Below, one piece after another: positions 2,966 to 55,516 of a stretch of DNA of 64,000 nucleotides (position 1 is the first letter of the stretch; every line of letters begins with the position of its first letter). Source of the stretch: a phage; sequence record PZ452582.1; one strand, written 5' to 3'. Under the pieces are notes generated by a model. The model saw only the letters and a list, made by a program, of their open reading frames with translations, did not search any database and was not told the origin of the DNA. Made by a program: the position numbers and the translations under genes.

Positions 2966-3981
2966 AAATTTTAAATTTAGGTGATTGGCATTTAGGTGTT
3001 AAAGCCGATGATGAGTGGGTTCAATCCATTCAGTTGGATGGAATTAAACAAGCAATAGAATATTCTAAGAAAAATGGAATTACTACATGGATTCAATACG
3101 GCGATATTTTTGATGTGCGAAAAGCAATCACACATAAAACTATGGAGTTCGCTCGTGAAATAGTTCAAATGCTTGATGATGCTGGTATTACCCTACATAC
3201 TGTTGTAGGAAACCATGATATGCACTTTAAAAATACTTTAACTCCAAATGCTTCTACTGAGCTTTTGGCTAAATATCCTAATGTTAAAGTATATGATAAG
3301 CCTACTACAGTAGATTTTGACGGATGTTTGATTGATTTAATTCCTTGGATGTGTGAAGAAAATACTGGTGAAATTCTTGAACATATTAAAACTTCATCCG
3401 CTTCTTTTTGTGTTGGTCACTGGGAACTGAATGGGTTTTATTTTTATAAAGGAATGAAATCTCACGGTCTTGAACCTGATTTCCTTAAGACTTATAAAGA
3501 GGTGTGGTCTGGTCACTTCCATACTATCTCTGAGGCTGCTAACGTCAGATATATTGGGACACCATGGACACTAACTGCAGGTGACGAGAATGACCCTCGT
3601 GGGTTCTGGATGTTTGATACAGAAACAGAACGAATGGAATTTATTCCAAACAATACTACCTGGCATCGTAGAATTCATTATCCATTTAAAGGAAAAATTG
3701 ACTATAAAGATTTTACAAATCTATCAGTACGTGTTATAGTAACTGAAGTAGACAAAAATCTAACGAAGTTCGAATCTGAACTAGAAAAAGTTGTGCATTC
3801 ATTACGAGTTGTGTCAAAAATTGATAACTCTGTCGAGTCAGATGACAGTGAAGAAGTTGAAGTTCAATCTCTTCAGACGTTAATGGAAGAATACATTAAT
3901 GCAATTCCAGACATCACTGATTCTGACCGTGAAGCACTTATTCAATATGCGAATCAGCTATATGTAGAGGCAACACAATGA
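2962..3981 (+). CDS. 47: gp47 recombination endonuclease subunit (Mre11-like)
   Basis: 339 aa, MKILNLGDWHLG phosphoesterase N-terminus, GNHDMH motif; T4 gp47 length. Confidence 0.93.
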   Translation: MKILNLGDWHLGVKADDEWVQSIQLDGIKQAIEYSKKNGITTWIQYGDIFDVRKAITHKTMEFAREIVQMLDDAGITLHTVVGNHDMHFKNTLTPNASTELLAKYPNVKVYDKPTTVDFDGCLIDLIPWMCEENTGEILEHIKTSSASFCVGHWELNGFYFYKGMKSHGLEPDFLKTYKEVWSGHFHTISEAANVRYIGTPWTLTAGDENDPRGFWMFDTETERMEFIPNNTTWHRRIHYPFKGKIDYKDFTNLSVRVIVTEVDKNLTKFESELEKVVHSLRVVSKIDNSVESDDSEEVEVQSLQTLMEEYINAIPDITDSDREALIQYANQLYVEATQ

Positions 3982-8504: not shown

Positions 8505-9187
8505 AATTATCTAAAGACACACTGAATATTTTGAAAAATTTCGCTACTATTAACTCCGGTATTATGCTTAAATCCGGTCAATTTATTATGACTCGTGCAG
8601 TTAATGGTACAACTTATGCGGAAGCAAATATTTCTGACGTTATTGATTTTGATGTAGCAATTTACGATTTGAACGGTTTTCTCGGTATTCTGTCTCTAGT
8701 TAATGATGATGCAGAAATTTCCCAGTCAGAAGATGGAAATATTAAAATTGCTGATGCCCGCTCAACAATTTTTTGGCCAGCAGCCGATCCGAGTACAGTA
8801 GTTGCTCCTAATAAACCAATTCCATTCCCGGTAGCATCTGTTGTTACTGAAATTAAAGCTGAAGACCTTCAACAACTGTTGCGTGTATCTCGTGGTCTGC
8901 AAATTGATACAATTGCTATCACGGTAAAAGAAGGTAAAATCGTAATTAATGGTTTTAATAAAGTAGAAGATTCTGCTCTTACCCGTGTTAAATATTCTTT
9001 GACTCTTGGTGATTATGATGGTGAAAATACATTTAATTTCATTATCAATATGGCAAATATGAAAATGCAACCAGGAAATTATAAACTTCTGCTTTGGGCA
9101 AAAGGTAAACAAGGTGCTGCTAAATTTGAAGGTGAACACGCGAATTATGTAGTAGCTCTTGAAGCTGATTCTACCCACGATTTTTAA
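8501..9187 (+). CDS. 45: gp45 sliding clamp
   Basis: 228 aa [27 protein letters not shown]...; T4 gp45 length and sequence recall. Confidence 0.95.
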   Translation: MKLSKDTLNILKNFATINSGIMLKSGQFIMTRAVNGTTYAEANISDVIDFDVAIYDLNGFLGILSLVNDDAEISQSEDGNIKIADARSTIFWPAADPSTVVAPNKPIPFPVASVVTEIKAEDLQQLLRVSRGLQIDTIAITVKEGKIVINGFNKVEDSALTRVKYSLTLGDYDGENTFNFIINMANMKMQPGNYKLLLWAKGKQGAAKFEGEHANYVVALEADSTHDF

Positions 9188-9188
9188 T

Positions 9189-9207
9189 AGAGGGCTTCGG
9201 CCCTTTA
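9189..9207 (+). terminator. hairpin AGGGC-TTCG-GCCCT after gene 45
   Basis: GC stem with UUCG loop followed by T-rich tract. Confidence 0.5.
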
Positions 9208-9238
9208 TAATTTACACTAAAACTTGAATGAGGAAATT

Positions 9239-11358: not shown

Positions 11359-11379
11359 AGGGGCTTCGGCCCCTTATTT
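11359..11379 (+). terminator. intrinsic terminator AGGGGC-TTCG-GCCCCT
   Basis: 6-bp GC stem, UUCG loop, T-rich tail. Confidence 0.6.
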
Positions 11380-17012: not shown

Positions 17013-18194
17013 ATGTCTATTGCAGATTTAAAATCCCGTTTGATTAAAGCTTCCACTTCTAAAATGACTGCTGAACTGACTACATCTAAATTCTTTAATG
17101 AAAAGGATGTAATTCGTACAAAAATTCCAATGCTTAATATTGCTATTTCTGGTGCGATTGATGGCGGCATGCAGTCTGGTTTAACTATTTTCGCAGGGCC
17201 TTCTAAACACTTTAAATCAAATATGTCTTTGACTATGGTTGCGGCATATTTGAACAAATATCCTGACGCGGTTTGTCTATTCTATGATAGTGAATTTGGT
17301 ATTACTCCAGCTTATTTGCGATCCATGGGAGTTGACCCGGAACGAGTAATTCATACGCCGATTCAGTCAGTTGAACAGCTGAAAATTGATATGGTGAACC
17401 AGCTTGAAGCTATTGAGCGTGGTGAAAAGGTTATTGTATTCATCGACTCAATTGGTAATATGGCTTCTAAGAAAGAAACGGAAGATGCCTTGAATGAAAA
17501 ATCTGTGGCAGATATGACTCGTGCTAAATCACTGAAGTCATTATTCCGTATTGTTACTCCTTACTTTAGCATTAAAAATATTCCATGTGTTGCGGTTAAC
17601 CATACAATTGAAACAATTGAAATGTTTAGTAAAACCGTGATGACAGGTGGTACAGGCGTAATGTATTCGGCTGATACTGTATTCATTATCGGTAAGCGTC
17701 AGATTAAAGATGGTTCTGATCTTCAGGGGTATCAATTTGTTCTAAATGTAGAAAAATCTCGTACCGTTAAAGAAAAAAGTAAATTCTTTATTGATGTTAA
17801 ATTTGACGGTGGTATCGATCCTTATTCTGGATTGTTAGATATGGCTCTAGAATTAGGATTTGTAGTAAAACCTAAAAATGGTTGGTATGCTCGTGAATTT
17901 CTTGACGAAGAAACCGGCGAGATGATTCGCGAAGAAAAATCTTGGCGTGCAAAAGATACTAACTGCACTACATTCTGGGGTCCTTTATTTAAGCATCAAC
18001 CATTCCGAGATGCTATTAAGCGTGCTTATCAGTTAGGTGCTATTGATAGTAATGAAATTGTTGAAGCGGAAGTTGATGAATTAATTAACTCAAAGGTTGA
18101 AAAATTTAAATCCTCAGAAAGTAAAAGTAAATCAGCAGCTGATTTAGAAACTGACCTCGAGCAGTTAAGTGATATGGAAGAATTTAATGAATAA
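17013..18194 (+). CDS. uvsX: UvsX recombinase (RecA-like)
   Basis: 393 aa MSIADLKSRLIKASTSK...; RecA-like Walker A GPSKHFKS; position between 42 locus and 40/41. Confidence 0.95.
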   Translation: MSIADLKSRLIKASTSKMTAELTTSKFFNEKDVIRTKIPMLNIAISGAIDGGMQSGLTIFAGPSKHFKSNMSLTMVAAYLNKYPDAVCLFYDSEFGITPAYLRSMGVDPERVIHTPIQSVEQLKIDMVNQLEAIERGEKVIVFIDSIGNMASKKETEDALNEKSVADMTRAKSLKSLFRIVTPYFSIKNIPCVAVNHTIETIEMFSKTVMTGGTGVMYSADTVFIIGKRQIKDGSDLQGYQFVLNVEKSRTVKEKSKFFIDVKFDGGIDPYSGLLDMALELGFVVKPKNGWYAREFLDEETGEMIREEKSWRAKDTNCTTFWGPLFKHQPFRDAIKRAYQLGAIDSNEIVEAEVDELINSKVEKFKSSESKSKSAADLETDLEQLSDMEEFNE

Positions 18195-18531
18195 AGATGA
18201 TTTAGATTTAGATCTAGAAATTATCGATGAATCCCCCTCTTCGGAGGGGGAAGAAGAAAGAAAAGAACGTCTTTTTAATGAATCTCTTAAGATAATTAAA
18301 TCTGCCATGGAAAATGTTATCCAGGAGATTGTCATTAAACTAGAAGATGGTTCTACACATATAGTGTATGTAACTAAACTGGATTGGGTTGATGGAAAGG
18401 TTGTAATGGACTTTGCTGTTCTTGACCAAGAAAGAAAAGCTGAGTTAGCTCCTCATGTAGAAAAATGTATTACAATGCAACTACAAGATGCATTTAATAA
18501 AAGGTCAAAGAAAAAGTTTAAATTCTTTTAA
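18187..18531 (+). CDS. 40: gp40 (putative)
   Basis: 114 aa from ATG 18187 (track GTG 18169), between uvsX and 41 as in T4. Confidence 0.6.
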   Translation: MNKDDLDLDLEIIDESPSSEGEEERKERLFNESLKIIKSAMENVIQEIVIKLEDGSTHIVYVTKLDWVDGKVVMDFAVLDQERKAELAPHVEKCITMQLQDAFNKRSKKKFKFF

Positions 18532-25889: not shown

Positions 25890-25895
25890 ATGCAA

Positions 25896-25918
25896 GGACT
25901 CCTTCGGGAGTCCTTTTT
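25896..25918 (+). terminator. intrinsic terminator GGACTCC-TTCG-GGAGTCC-TTTTT
   Basis: 7-bp stem, UUCG loop, T5 tail right after soc. Confidence 0.75.
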
Positions 25919-36366: not shown

Positions 36367-36627
36367 ATGAAATATATTAATCGTTCTATCGCAGCATTAG
36401 TATTAGCAGTGTCTTTAGCAGGATGTACTGATGCTGATAATGCAACCAAAATTTTGTCATCAAGCGGTTTTACTAATATTGAAATCACTGGATACAATTG
36501 GTTCGGTTGCTCTGAAAATGATTTCCAACATACTGGATTTCGCGCTATTGGACCTACCGGGCAGAAAGTAGAAGGAACCGTATGTTCTGGTCTATTCTTC
36601 AAGGATTCGACTATCCGTTTTAAATAA
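36367..36627 (+). CDS. putative lipoprotein
   Basis: 86 aa; signal peptide with lipobox LAGC (MKYINRSIAALVLAVSLAGCTD). Confidence 0.5.
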   Translation: MKYINRSIAALVLAVSLAGCTDADNATKILSSSGFTNIEITGYNWFGCSENDFQHTGFRAIGPTGQKVEGTVCSGLFFKDSTIRFK

Positions 36628-36644
36628 AAGGCCTTCGGGCCTTT
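36628..36644 (+). terminator. terminator hairpin AAGGCC-TTCG-GGCCTT
   Basis: GC stem with UUCG loop; followed by the AGCTTTA ... TATAAT cassette also seen at 2801-2826. Confidence 0.6.
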
Positions 36645-42136: not shown

Positions 42137-42160
42137 AAGGGGCTTCGGCCCTTTTGTTTT
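42137..42160 (+). terminator. intrinsic terminator GGGGC-TTCG-GCCC-TTTTGTTTT
   Basis: GC stem, UUCG loop, T-rich tail. Confidence 0.65.
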
Positions 42161-42991: not shown

Positions 42992-43008
42992 AAAATTTTC
43001 ACAAAACG

Positions 43009-43038
43009 GTTTACATACCACAAGGACTGTGGTACTAT
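43009..43038 (+). promoter_or_regulatory. early promoter cassette
   Basis: GTTTAC 43009-43014, 17-nt spacer, TACTAT 43033-43038; near-identical to the cassettes at 14247, 46823 and 63857. Confidence 0.55.
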
Positions 43039-43065
43039 ACAACTATCGGCTACGGAGGAGTAAAA

Positions 43066-43329
43066 ATGAAATTTAAATTTTATTACGCTAAACATAAAAT
43101 AACTGATGAGTTTGTGTCAGTTGAATATTCTAGCGATGATGAAGGCATGATTTATACTCGCTTGGGACTATCGCATTGGGAGTCTGATACGCCTTATTTT
43201 TCAACTCCCGAAGAAATTACACGCTTAGTTAATGGTCATATGAATGACCACTGGTGTGTAATTCTTTCAGATAGTCTTAAAGCGGCTATTAATAGTAATG
43301 AAATGAAAATCGCTGAGATTGAACTATGA
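43066..43329 (+). CDS. hypothetical protein
   Basis: 87 aa from ATG 43066 after GGAGG. Confidence 0.45.
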   Translation: MKFKFYYAKHKITDEFVSVEYSSDDEGMIYTRLGLSHWESDTPYFSTPEEITRLVNGHMNDHWCVILSDSLKAAINSNEMKIAEIEL

Positions 43330-43514
43330 GTTCATTGTGGTGGTGTTTTGTTTGGTTAATTAGTATTCCATTAATTTGTTTAACATTTACTTTTGTAATG
43401 AGGTTATTATGAAAATTTTGAATTCTGTACTTATTGCTTGTGCATGGTGGGTTGCGCAAGTTTCAGCGGTAGTAGTTGGTATTCACATTTATTACGAATA
43501 TTTTTAAAAAAGTT

Positions 43515-43544
43515 GTTTACAAGACTGTTCCTCTGTGGTATTAT
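43515..43544 (+). promoter_or_regulatory. early promoter
   Basis: GTTTAC 43515-43520, 17-nt spacer, TATTAT 43539-43544. Confidence 0.5.
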
Positions 43545-43572
43545 TACCCTATCAACTACGGAGGAACAGAAA

Positions 43573-43686
43573 ATGAAAAAGATTGTTAAAGCTATATGGA
43601 ATGTAGTTATAATATTAGTAGTTTTGAGTATATTCCCAATCGTTTTAATGATTGATGTATTAAACGCTTACTTTGGATTTATGTGA
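43573..43686 (+). CDS. small membrane protein
   Basis: 37 aa MKKIVKAIWNVVIILVVLSIFPIVLMIDVL..., GGAGG SD. Confidence 0.35.
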   Translation: MKKIVKAIWNVVIILVVLSIFPIVLMIDVLNAYFGFM

Positions 43687-43693
43687 GGAAAAT

Positions 43694-43891
43694 ATGAAGC
43701 GTAAACGCGGTGCTTTTACATTTATTGAATGGTTTTTCGATAATATTTTTCCGGCTTTATTCATTTTCATGCTGATTTTCGCCTTAGGTTCAGCTGTAGT
43801 TGGAATTTATTTGATGGCGGTTGTCGGAATGGACATTCATCAAAATGGCTTAAAATCTGTGGTTGAAACAATTTGGAATGGTGTAAAATAA
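43694..43891 (+). CDS. small membrane protein
   Basis: 65 aa from ATG 43694, two hydrophobic helices. Confidence 0.4.
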   Translation: MKRKRGAFTFIEWFFDNIFPALFIFMLIFALGSAVVGIYLMAVVGMDIHQNGLKSVVETIWNGVK

Positions 43892-43998
43892 TGAATTTAC
43901 TAAGCATTTGGTTTTATATTCTCATGTTTTACGTTGGTGCAAATTTTCCGTATTGGATGGGATGGTCAACAACTGCATTTGGATTTTATACTCCCTGA
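43891..43998 (+). CDS. small membrane protein (not in ORF track)
   Basis: 35 aa MNLLSIWFYILMFYVGANFPYW... Confidence 0.3.
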   Translation: MNLLSIWFYILMFYVGANFPYWMGWSTTAFGFYTP

Positions 43999-44006
43999 GG
44001 TGAATT

Positions 44007-44222
44007 ATGAAAATTTTTAAAGATGTAAAAGTTGGCGAAATTTTTTGCTTGGATAGTGGTGATCAGTTAATTCGTATTTCACCTCTTAAGAGCACTAGCG
44101 AGAAAATGACAGTTAACGCTACTTTAGTAAACAACAGTAATGAACGTTTCTGTATTGAAAATGATACTGAAACTTATACTGTAGAAGAGTTCTGGGAATT
44201 GAGCGTCGACTGCGACGATTAA
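44007..44222 (+). CDS. hypothetical protein
   Basis: 71-aa ORF. Confidence 0.4.
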   Translation: MKIFKDVKVGEIFCLDSGDQLIRISPLKSTSEKMTVNATLVNNSNERFCIENDTETYTVEEFWELSVDCDD

Positions 44223-44281
44223 TTTATCGGCCGTGTGTATTCATGCGGCCTTGGAGTAGAAAATAATTAGAGGAAATTAAT

Positions 44282-44737
44282 ATGAAATACATGACTGTTA
44301 CTGATCTGAATAATGCAGGTGCTACTGTTATTGGTACAATCAAGGGCGGTGAATGGTTTTTGGGAACTCCACACAAAGATATTTTATCTAAACCTGGATT
44401 TTACTTTTTAGTGAGTAAACTCGATGGTCCATTTGATAGTCCATGCGTATCTGCACGATTTTATGTAGGTAATCAGCGTTCTAAGCAAGGGTTCAGTGCA
44501 GTTCTAAGTCATATTCGTCAACGTCGGTCTCAGCTTGCGCGTACTATTGCAAATAACAATGTTCCATACACGGTATTTTATTTGCCTGCTTCTAAGATGA
44601 AACCTTTGACGACAGGATTTGGAAAAGGTCAGTTAGCTTTAGCGTTTACTCGTAATCATCATTCTGAGTATCAAACACTTGAAGAAATGAACCGTATGTT
44701 GGCTGATAACTTTAAATTTGTTTTGCAGGCATACTAA
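44282..44737 (+). CDS. ndd: Ndd nucleoid disruption protein
   Basis: 151 aa, T4 Ndd length; position between denB region and stp/52. Confidence 0.88.
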
Positions 44738-44910
44738 TGAAAGCTCTATTTGTAATGGGTTACCTATTAGTTTTAGCCTTATTCACATTGACTGGAATCT
44801 TTACAGCTTTAGGTCTACCTCTTAATGATAATGTGGCTGTCGTGATGTGTGTAGGTGGCGGATTTATCTGTTTTGAACGTTTATGCAAAATGTGTGGTGT
44901 GTATGAGTAA
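44737..44910 (+). CDS. small membrane protein (possibly ac-like)
   Basis: 57-aa hydrophobic ORF; stop overlaps stp start. Confidence 0.35.
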
Positions 44911-44983
44911 TTTCCATAACGAACATGTGATGCAGTTCTATCGTAACAATCTTAAAACCAAAGGCGTCTTCGGACGCCAGTGA
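44903..44983 (+). CDS. stp: Stp peptide (activator of host PrrC anticodon nuclease)
   Basis: 26-codon [29 protein letters not shown], matching recalled T4 Stp; not in the ORF track. Confidence 0.8.
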
Positions 44984-44990
44984 GGAAAAT

Positions 44991-45149
44991 ATGAATATCG
45001 CAAAATTATTAGGAGTTATTTCATTTATTTGTTGGATAGTAGCATGTGTTTTAACTATCTGTATCGATGCTAGCAGTGTGTTTTCACAAGCTTTAGCCCA
45101 GGGTATGTGTGCATATTTAACATTTGTGTTGTTATCTACTAATGATTAA
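44991..45149 (+). CDS. small membrane protein
   Basis: 52-aa ORF MNIAKLLGVISFICWIVACVL... Confidence 0.35.
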   Translation: MNIAKLLGVISFICWIVACVLTICIDASSVFSQALAQGMCAYLTFVLLSTND

Positions 45150-45282
45150 GAAAATCTTGGGCTATTCATTAGCCCTTGCTACTTTATTGGTAGCACTATA
45201 TTATGGAGTAATGTTCGGATTAATTCAAGTCGTGCTTTTCATTTCTGATGTTATTATGGCACTACATTCACTAGTATGGTAA
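45142..45282 (+). CDS. small membrane protein
   Basis: 46-aa ORF MIKKILGYSLALATLLVALYYGV... Confidence 0.3.
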   Translation: MIKKILGYSLALATLLVALYYGVMFGLIQVVLFISDVIMALHSLVW

Positions 45283-45286
45283 ATTT

Positions 45287-46615
45287 ATGCAACTGAATAA
45301 TCGCGATTTAAAAAGTATCATTGATAATGAAGCATTGGCTTATGCTATGTACACGGTTGAAAATCGTGCTATTCCAAATATGATTGATGGATTTAAGCCA
45401 GTTCAACGATTTGTTATTGCTCGAGCTCTTGATTTGGCACGAGGAAATAAAGATAAGTTTCACAAACTCGCTTCTATTGCAGGTGGTGTAGCGGACCTTG
45501 GATATCACCATGGTGAAAACTCTGCACAAGATGCGGGGGCTTTGATGGCTAACACTTGGAATAATAACTTTCCTTTGTTAGATGGTCAAGGAAACTTTGG
45601 TTCTCGTACCGTTCAAAAAGCAGCAGCAAGTCGTTATATTTTTGCTCGTGTAAGTAAAAATTTCTATAACGTATATAAAGATACTGAATATGCTCCGGTA
45701 CATCAAGATAAAGAACACATTCCGCCTGCTTTCTATTTGCCTATTATTCCTACTGTTCTTCTTAATGGCGTTTCCGGTATTGCAACTGGTTATGCAACTT
45801 ACATTCTTCCTCATAGTGTTTCTTCTGTCAAGAAAGCTGTACTGCAAGCTCTTCAAGGAAAGAAAGTAACTAAACCGAAGGTAGAATTCCCAGAATTTCG
45901 TGGTGAAGTCGTTGAGATTGACGGTCAATATGAAATTCGTGGAACGTACAAGTTTACTTCACGAACTCAAATGAATATCACTGAGATTCCGTATAAGTAT
46001 GATCGTGAAACTTATGTGAGTAAAATCTTAGACCCACTTGAAGATAAAGGCTTCATTACATGGGATGATGCTTGTGGTGAGCATGGCTTTGGCTTCAAAG
46101 TTAAATTCCGTAAAGAATATTCTTTGAGCGATAACGAAGAAGAACGCCATGCAAAAATTATGAAAGACTTCGGGTTGATTGAGCGTCGTTCTCAGAATAT
46201 TACGGTTATTAATGAAAAAGGAAAACTACAAGTTTACGATAACGTAGTCGATTTAATTAAAGACTTTGTTGAAGTTCGTAAAACTTATGTCCAAAAACGA
46301 ATTGATAATAAAATTAAAGAAACTGAGTCAGCTTTTCGTTTAGCCTTTGCCAAGGCGCATTTCATTAAGAAAGTAATTTCAGGTGAAATTGTTGTTCAAG
46401 GTAAAACTCGTAAAGAACTGACCGAAGAACTTTCGAAAATTGAGATGTATTCTTCTTATGTTGATAAACTAGTCGGAATGAATATTTTTCATATGACTTC
46501 CGACGAAGCAAAGAAACTTGCTGAAGAAGCTAAAGCTAAGAAAGAAGAAAACGAATATTGGAAAACTACTGATGTAGTTACAGAATACACCAAAGATTTA
46601 GAGGAAATCAAATGA
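45287..46615 (+). CDS. 52: gp52 topoisomerase II medium subunit (GyrA-like)
   Basis: 442 aa MQLNNRDLKSIIDNEALAYAMYTVENRAIP...; T4 gp52 length. Confidence 0.93.
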   Translation: MQLNNRDLKSIIDNEALAYAMYTVENRAIPNMIDGFKPVQRFVIARALDLARGNKDKFHKLASIAGGVADLGYHHGENSAQDAGALMANTWNNNFPLLDGQGNFGSRTVQKAAASRYIFARVSKNFYNVYKDTEYAPVHQDKEHIPPAFYLPIIPTVLLNGVSGIATGYATYILPHSVSSVKKAVLQALQGKKVTKPKVEFPEFRGEVVEIDGQYEIRGTYKFTSRTQMNITEIPYKYDRETYVSKILDPLEDKGFITWDDACGEHGFGFKVKFRKEYSLSDNEEERHAKIMKDFGLIERRSQNITVINEKGKLQVYDNVVDLIKDFVEVRKTYVQKRIDNKIKETESAFRLAFAKAHFIKKVISGEIVVQGKTRKELTEELSKIEMYSSYVDKLVGMNIFHMTSDEAKKLAEEAKAKKEENEYWKTTDVVTEYTKDLEEIK

Positions 46616-46761
46616 GTCCATTCATAGGTATTACAAGCGCTGCATTAGTATCCGGTAGCATTTTACTGGCGGGTTTAGGTGTTGTTCCAGCCGTAGCAGG
46701 AGGTCTTCTTGCGTTCGGAATTCAACGTGTTATCATGACAGTTATCACAGTCATGCAGTAA
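46612..46761 (+). CDS. small membrane protein
   Basis: about 49 aa MSPFIGITSALVSGSILLAGLGVVPAV..., overlaps gene 52 stop. Confidence 0.35.
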   Translation: MSPFIGITSAALVSGSILLAGLGVVPAVAGGLLAFGIQRVIMTVITVMQ

Positions 46762-46766
46762 TTTTA

Positions 46767-46792
46767 GGGAGAGCCTCGGCTCTCCCTTTTTT
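46767..46792 (+). terminator. intrinsic terminator GGGAGAGC-CTCG-GCTCTCCC-TTTTTT
   Basis: 8-bp GC-rich stem followed by T6. Confidence 0.75.
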
Positions 46793-46822
46793 ATTTCAAA
46801 AAAAAAAAAAATTCACAAAACG

Positions 46823-46852
46823 GTTTACAACCAAAGCATACTGTGGTACTAT
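46823..46852 (+). promoter_or_regulatory. early promoter cassette upstream of motA
   Basis: GTTTAC 46823-46828, TACTAT 46847-46852; preceded by a 14-nt A tract (46798-46811). Confidence 0.55.
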
Positions 46853-46893
46853 ACAACTATCAACTGCTGATACAGAATTACGGAGATTAGAAA

Positions 46894-47529
46894 ATGTCTA
46901 AAGTAACTTACATCATCAAAGCTTCTAACGATGTTCTGAATGAAAAAACCGCTGCGATTTTAATTACTATTGCTAAGAAAGATTTCATTACAGCCGCAGA
47001 AGTTCGTGAGGTGCATCCAGATTTAGGTAACGCAGTAGTTAATAGTAATATTGGGGTATTGATTAAAAAAGGCCTGGTGGAGAAATCTGGTGATGGATTA
47101 ATCATTACTGGTGAAGCTCAGGATATTATTTCAAACGCAGCAACTTTATATGCACAGGAAAATGCTCCGGAACTTCTGAAAAAACGTGCTACTCGTAAAG
47201 CTCGCGAGATTACTTCCGATATGGAAGAAGATAAAGATCTCATGTTAAAACTTTTAGATGAAAATGGATTTGTTCTTAAAAAGGTTGAAACTTATCGTAG
47301 TAATTATCTTGCTATTTTAGAAAAACGCACTCACGGAATTCGCAATTTTGAAATTAACAACAATGGAAACATGCGAATTTTTGGATACAAAATGATGGAA
47401 CATCATATTCAGAAATTTACTGACATCGGAATGTCATGTAAAATCGCTAAAAACGGTAATGTGTATCTTGACATTAAACGCTCGGCAGAAAACATTGAAG
47501 CAGTAATCACTGTAGCATCTGAACTGTGA
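46894..47529 (+). CDS. motA: MotA middle-transcription activator
   Basis: 211 aa MSKVTYIIKASNDVLNEKTAAILITIAKKDF...; T4 MotA length. Confidence 0.92.
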   Translation: MSKVTYIIKASNDVLNEKTAAILITIAKKDFITAAEVREVHPDLGNAVVNSNIGVLIKKGLVEKSGDGLIITGEAQDIISNAATLYAQENAPELLKKRATRKAREITSDMEEDKDLMLKLLDENGFVLKKVETYRSNYLAILEKRTHGIRNFEINNNGNMRIFGYKMMEHHIQKFTDIGMSCKIAKNGNVYLDIKRSAENIEAVITVASEL

Positions 47530-51096: not shown

Positions 51097-51108
51097 TAAA
51101 AATCCTTA

Positions 51109-51124
51109 GAGGGCCGAAGCCCTC
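51109..51124 (-). other. intergenic stem-loop between genes 37 and 38
   Basis: GAGGGC-UUCG-GCCCUC on the minus-strand transcript; no U tail, so attenuator or stability element rather than a full terminator. Confidence 0.45.
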
Positions 51125-51126
51125 TT

Positions 51127-55486: not shown

Positions 55487-55510
55487 AGAAAAAGGGAACC
55501 CGAAGGCTCC
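55487..55510 (-). terminator. hairpin GGGAGCC-UUCG-GGUUCCC plus U5 after gene 35
   Basis: Stem with one G-U pair then UUUUU on the minus-strand RNA. Confidence 0.5.
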
Positions 55511-55516
55511 CTCAGT

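Follow-up and report, generated by a model that had tools for sequence, protein, structure and literature searches.

A 26-codon ORF identical to T4 Stp and its embedded C(UUCG)G hairpin in the ndd-ac region of a T4-like phage

The Stp peptide is made early in infection, and in the hosts that carry prrC this gene is located inside the EcoprrI locus. Stp inhibits restriction by the type Ic enzymes EcoprrI and EcoR124I, and not by type Ia enzymes (PMC3014915). In prr+ cells, the inhibition of EcoprrI unmasks the latent anticodon nuclease PrrC, which cuts tRNA-Lys 5′ of the wobble base, and the cleaved tRNA is repaired by T4 polynucleotide kinase (pseT) together with RNA ligase 1 (rnlA) (PMC3014915, PMC12409349). 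Loss-of-function suppressor mutations in Stp cluster at residues 4 to 14, plasmid-expressed Stp suffices for activity, and removal of the last eight codons lowers this activity only moderately (PMC3014915); how the peptide inhibits EcoprrI was still called unknown in a 2025 review (PMC12707154). A second described system that bears on this locus is the extra-stable C(UUCG)G hairpin motif, which, according to PMC4371310, was first described in T4 mRNA by Tuerk et al. in 1988.

The window analyzed here is a whole stretch of 64,000 nucleotides of phage DNA (sequence record PZ452582.1). An earlier note, made from the letters of this stretch, had matched the translation of a 26-codon ORF at 44903-44983 on the positive strand to T4 Stp and had proposed an alignment with T4 stp. 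The ORF is present with exactly the translation claimed, its product has 26/26 identity to T4 Stp (NP_049878.1), and the annotated T4 CDS (NC_000866 165505-165585) translates to the identical 26-mer. Both family profiles match the product over its full length, namely Pfam PF08133 (Nuclease_act, "anticodon nuclease activator"; 75.3 bits, E = 2e-21, positions 1-26 of 26, cut-off 25) and phrog_6763 (75.4 bits, positions 1-26 of 26). The N-proximal 18 residues, including residues 4 to 14, are conserved and all 26 are those of T4 Stp, while the two DNA differences between the stp of the window and that of T4 are both synonymous. We therefore place the probability that this ORF represents stp from a T4-like (Tequatrovirus) phage at roughly 95%, and none of the evidence speaks against it; it is a long-known gene that had been rightly recognized, and no new discovery. 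The biology attributed to it in the note, with EcoprrI inhibition leading to PrrC activation, agrees with the published accounts (PMC3014915, PMC12707154, PMC12409349).

The surroundings of the ORF follow the T4 order ndd-stp-ac-52.1-52 on the early-gene strand, with one extra ORF of 57 aa (Table 1) that is also found in the ndd/stp gap of ime09-like and some JS98-like phages. The ndd label is also present in matching phage records. At TAATG, the stop of ndd and the start of the 57-aa ORF overlap, and the start of 52.1 shares 8 nt with the ac stop (ATGATTAA). Over this 1-kb stretch, DNA identity to ime09-like Tequatrovirus genomes is ~97.6%, and over 22 kb the identity to phage-collection records never exceeds ~96%, which makes the window part of a T-even phage that this collection does not contain. 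Upstream of ndd, at 43376-44222, lies a series of tiny, mostly hydrophobic ORFs equivalent to ndd.1 to ndd.5, and this region, like the ndd-to-gene-52 stretch with which it forms a mosaic, consists of tiny genes for membrane proteins and varies in gene content among T4-like genera. At 46766-46787, 3′ of gene 52 and motA.1, AGGGAGAGCCTCGGCTCTCCCT forms a strong hairpin of terminator-like type, with TTTTTATTTC after it.

Table 1. Features of the ndd to gene 52 region and CUUCGG hairpins of the window.
Feature	Position	Strand	Evidence or remark
ndd (nucleoid disruption protein, 151 aa)	44282..44737	+	Pfam PF06591, 304.6 bits, full length
57-aa hydrophobic ORF (phrog_5941)	44737..44910	+	between ndd and stp
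stp, 26 codons	44903..44983	+	26/26 identity to T4 Stp, PF08133, phrog_6763
C(UUCG)G hairpin, 6-bp stem, GGCGUC-UUCG-GACGCC	44963..44978	+	inside stp codons 21-26
Junction TGAGGAAAATATG: stp stop codon, Shine-Dalgarno (GAGG) and next gene's start codon	44981..44993	+	
ac (acridine resistance, 52-aa membrane protein)	44991..45149	+	phrog_2501, 88.6 bits; annotated in T4 and relatives
gene 52.1 (46-aa membrane protein)	45142..45282	+	DUF7396 (PF24129), 79.1 bits; T4 annotation
gene 52 (topoisomerase II medium subunit)	45287..46615	+	442-aa ORF; annotated in T4 and relatives; synteny anchor
Other CUUCGG hairpins	1513-1532, 2783-2802, 9187-9208, 11359-11374	+	strong stems
Other CUUCGG hairpins	18232-18251, 25894-25915, 36627-36644, 42137-42154	+	strong stems
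CUUCGG hairpins	55492-55513, 51108-51125	-	strong stems

The 57-aa ORF between ndd and stp is strongly hydrophobic (GRAVY 1.34), probably has two membrane-spanning segments, and matches phrog_5941 over positions 1-57 of 57 (96.2 bits). The overlap of its stop with the stp start, as described in the earlier note, is borne out: 8 nt are shared (ATGAGTAA), with the TAA stop at 44908-44910, and the two ORFs are in different frames. In the alignment with T4 this ORF is absent, leaving an exact gap of 174 bp. Homologs are located directly 3′ of ndd in many distant T4-like IMG/VR loci, some of which lack stp, and an alignment of 12 representatives of the family reveals near-invariant E47, R48 and G54. 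The DNA of the ORF is matched by 38 phage records, versus 567 for the whole ndd-ac stretch, and a homolog search with its protein returned three clusters. By these comparisons the ORF is a member of a widespread conserved family and not peculiar to this phage, and the simplest reading is that its gene was lost from T4 and most Tequatrovirus phages.

Evidence that stp is translated as a protein comes from a comparison of 21 sequences covering T-even phages, Kagunavirus and the 56-kb phage Bas95. Across these three unrelated genomic contexts, which have only the ATG-to-stop frame in common, codons 1 to 11 contain eight synonymous codon variants versus one amino-acid variant, a ratio that shows purifying selection on the frame as a protein and implies its translation. 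This translation is probably coupled to that of the 57-aa ORF, as suggested by their 8-nt overlap and by the lack of a good Shine-Dalgarno sequence before stp, which holds both here and in the T4 context. The stp ATG lies 5 nt ahead of the stop of the 57-aa ORF, and the T4 counterpart of this arrangement is the ndd-stp TAATG overlap. That the 26-codon ORF arose by chance or goes untranslated, or that the true product is instead a 42-codon, GTG-started frame at 44855-44983, is highly improbable. The mechanical ORF list does carry the stp frame up to the GTG at 44855, the public record of phage PinkRuby annotates a 29-codon version of stp, and the ATG is without a strong Shine-Dalgarno sequence; however, T4, in which stp directly adjoins ndd, and the siphovirus contexts all lack the upstream extension, and the excess of synonymous over non-synonymous variants starts at the stp ATG. 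The genetics of T4 also count against these options, with missense suppressors located inside the 26-mer and activity obtained from plasmid-expressed Stp (PMC3014915).

Given the identity to the characterized T4 peptide, we infer that the Stp of the window would inhibit EcoprrI and EcoR124I and activate PrrC. In the proposed course of events, Stp would block EcoprrI restriction in the host, and in hosts with prrC this block would unmask PrrC, so that tRNA-Lys would be cleaved 5′ of the wobble base; the phage would survive because the tRNA is then healed and resealed by polynucleotide kinase (pseT) and RNA ligase 1 (rnlA). A tblastn search of the 64-kb window with T4 PseT and RnlA gave no match, and the same search located gp32 and RNase H near the 3′ end of the window. 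The T4 genes pseT and rnlA are 10-13 kb past gene 32, and their absence here would be accounted for by the end of the window at gene 32, ~10-13 kb short of the syntenic position. Phage ime09, which has the same ndd-57aa-stp arrangement as the window, carries both pseT and rnlA. With stp present, the phage should escape type Ic restriction, and on prr+ E. coli a stp-bearing phage should rely on the Pnk and Rnl1 repair pair. For the window itself, the outcome is an annotation fix that adds a textbook anti-restriction and defense-trigger gene.

Homologs of Stp were collected from Ndd-anchored loci, with a degenerate DNA motif built on the invariant N-terminal residues, and by tblastn against phage records. 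In the six-frame tblastn search, 614 phage records match the 26-mer, mostly Tequatrovirus and other T-even phages; other carriers are Kagunavirus NC_073322.1, the Drexlerviridae phage BEK3, the 56-kb phage Bas95 and several IMG/VR contigs of ~44 kb. The Kagunavirus homolog lies unannotated at 3452-3526, and among the extracted loci homologs were found in L063 (1501-1575) and L064 (about 1498-1572) as well as in L051, L052, L054, L055 and L057. The siphovirus homologs have in common with T4 Stp the N-terminal 14-residue core and the GVFG motif and are 25 aa long, but they lie in an unrelated genomic context, have their own Shine-Dalgarno sequence, lack the hairpin, and end in a stop codon that overlaps the ATG of the next gene (AAATGA). 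In the one Kagunavirus genome examined (NC_073322.1), tblastn gave no significant match to T4 PseT or RnlA, and a search of one literature collection returned no paper linking Stp with the Kagunavirus, Drexlerviridae or Bas95 groups. These mostly unannotated siphovirus copies could aid the interpretation of phage host range with respect to type Ic restriction-modification and PrrC.

The lack of a stp annotation is a general gene-calling gap. Of 45 sampled records, 4 carry a stp annotation where the match lies, as do 6 of the 30 best-matching ones, amounting to ~10-20% of the records sampled, and gene callers usually miss it because it has only 26 codons.

The earlier note had also placed a GGCGTC-TTCG-GACGCC hairpin at the 3′ end of stp. 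The hairpin is present, but the coordinates given for it (44961-44976) had slipped by 2 nt and are corrected to 44963-44978. It folds at -12.2 kcal/mol in its local context, and the stp stop codon ends 5 nt past the stem. In a larger fold of 116 nt, a UUUCC near the stp start pairs with the GGAAA of the ac Shine-Dalgarno sequence, the z-score being just -2.0. Rfam contains no family that spans the hairpin; within 43000-47000 its sole match is to SorY, below threshold, at 46735-46794, and a search of the literature returned no transcript-end, stability or terminator data for the ndd/stp site. The SorY match (20 bits, E = 0.79) overlaps the 46766-46787 hairpin and is almost certainly spurious.

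The CTTCGG motif is found at 15 sites on the positive strand of the window, versus ~5.7 expected, and nine of these, including that in stp, have stems of at least 6 bp. The stems of the strong CUUCGG hairpins in the window range from 6 to 9 bp, and on the two strands together nearly all of these hairpins begin at a stop codon or shortly after one. All nine positive-strand hairpins are at or near cistron 3′ ends, and the eight besides that of stp start at or after the stop codon of the preceding ORF. The hairpin at 18232-18251 seems to fall in the 5′ part of an ORF at 18187-18531.

The codons that form the stp hairpin were compared with all 3072 synonymous encodings of KGVFGRQ, weighted by the codon usage of the window itself. 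In this post hoc test, carried out with the hairpin already known, encodings that fold at -12.2 kcal/mol or better have a usage-weighted share of 1.7e-4 and an unweighted share of 2.6e-3. Three of the codons in the hairpin are rare, namely GGC (14%), GTC (8%) and CGC (11%). Stem variants among relatives (GGC to GGT, CGCC to CGCT, and GGA to GGG) all retain G.U pairing; these weigh little, since the synonymous stem sites are all C or A and transitions at them never break pairing. No compensatory double changes in the stem were seen among the stp alleles of relatives.

A variant with an inverted loop (TTCG to CGAA), an intact stem and the peptide tail GVRRRQ occurs in ECP52 (ON782582.1, ~460-475 of the extracted locus). 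It was seen solely in this record, whose ndd has a frameshifting extra T, and may stem from a loop inversion templated by the hairpin or from faulty sequencing; it is treated here as a singleton or sequencing error.

From the codon choice and the distribution of the motif, we infer that the T4-type stp allele carries the CUUCGG hairpin as an RNA element under selection. One alternative, which we consider unlikely, is that it is a mere by-product of the codons for a conserved C-terminal GVFGR and has no RNA role. The GVFG amino acids are kept even in the Kagunavirus and Drexlerviridae copies with quite different nucleotides, as such a by-product would have it, and the missing double substitutions and the pairing-neutral transitions at synonymous stem sites also speak for it. 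Yet other codons spell GVFG or GVLG in Kagunavirus, BEK3 and Bas95, none of which has the hairpin, and where siphovirus copies write GVFG as GGA GTG TTT GGA no hairpin is formed, so the peptide does not force the structure; the observed stability relies on three rare GC-ending codons and has a low weighted probability under the codon usage of the window, and the exact CUUCGG motif recurs at eight further cistron ends on the same strand. More doubtful still is an intrinsic terminator, acting either in the sense direction at the end of the ndd-stp transcript or on the opposite strand against antisense or late read-through transcription. The record of phage SA21RB annotates a rho-independent terminator at this site as a WebGeSTer prediction, and on the negative strand, the only one that scores, the stem is followed by TTTGGTTTTA and passes a terminator-like scan. 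On the positive strand, however, AGTGAGGAAAAT comes after the stem and there is no U-tract, so the hairpin is no canonical sense-strand terminator; the scan gives no site there, and ac, 52.1 and 52 follow within 8 nt with apparent co-expression. The T-run on the negative strand derives from the Lys and Thr codons of Stp and is lost in other hairpin-bearing alleles, where the corresponding tail would be AGTTAATTTCAG.

As a selected element, the hairpin is best read as an RNA-level feature that one lineage of alleles has superimposed on a peptide tail tolerant of change. The hairpin belongs to a class of very stable hairpins at T4 cistron 3′ ends. Most likely it serves as a stabilizer or decay barrier at the mRNA 3′ end, organizes the ribosome-binding site of ac, which lies 5 nt further on, or does both. 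It is not required for the function of the Stp peptide, since it is absent from the T2-type stp alleles and from the siphovirus homologs. The stp hairpin thereby illustrates an RNA structure overlaid on a dispensable peptide tail.

Immediately after stp, the 13-nt junction is identical in every hairpin-bearing stp locus examined, though the downstream gene varies. The genes found after it include at least six small membrane ORFs unrelated to one another, with products beginning MNIAKLL, MQTVFTF, MTSVFSF, MNILQGF, MVILVFIEL and MKFVHGV. An invariant junction followed by a gene that differs between phages suggests a recombination breakpoint at the start codon after stp.

Taken together, these observations allow a joint reading to which we give even odds. 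In its first part, the rare-codon CUUCGG hairpin would be a selected RNA element with control over ndd-stp message stability or over translation of the small membrane gene, variable between phages, that comes after stp, with the 13-nt junction marking the breakpoint at which downstream cassettes are shuffled; in its second, Stp would have spread horizontally into siphoviruses (Kagunavirus, Drexlerviridae and Bas95-like phages). If this second part is true, the primary role of Stp would be anti-restriction against type Ic systems, as suggested by the one Kagunavirus genome examined, which is without T4-type tRNA repair genes, and such siphoviruses would be naturally vulnerable to PrrC. The codon bias of the hairpin and the siphovirus copies of Stp are modest side observations beside the identification of the gene.

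Among described systems, T4 stp is the closest to that of the window: it encodes the identical 26 residues, has ndd upstream and ac, 52.1 and 52 downstream, and its DNA contains both the embedded CUUCGG hairpin and the TGAGGAAAATATG junction. The two differ at the 5′ side, where T4 stp starts at the ndd stop (TAATG), whereas that of the window starts inside the last codons of the 57-aa ORF. A T2-type allele, found in T2 (AP018813.1; 401-481 of the extracted locus) and in vB_EcoM-fFiEco06 (MG781190.1; 401-487), has residues 1 to 18 and the position between ndd and ac in common with the window, but its C-terminus reads NFGILGFKK or NFGILGSKNS, it has no GC-rich hairpin, and the ac Shine-Dalgarno sequence contains GGAG, a potential RegB site. 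It is a second stp allele inside Tequatrovirus. As for the C(UUCG)G hairpins of T4 mRNA, the stp hairpin departs from that class in lying within the coding sequence, in the last six codons and not in an intercistronic position after the stop codon, and in having no U-tract; it has in common with the class the C-G-closed UUCG tetraloop, the GC-rich stem, the transcribed, early-gene sense strand and the location at a cistron 3′ end.
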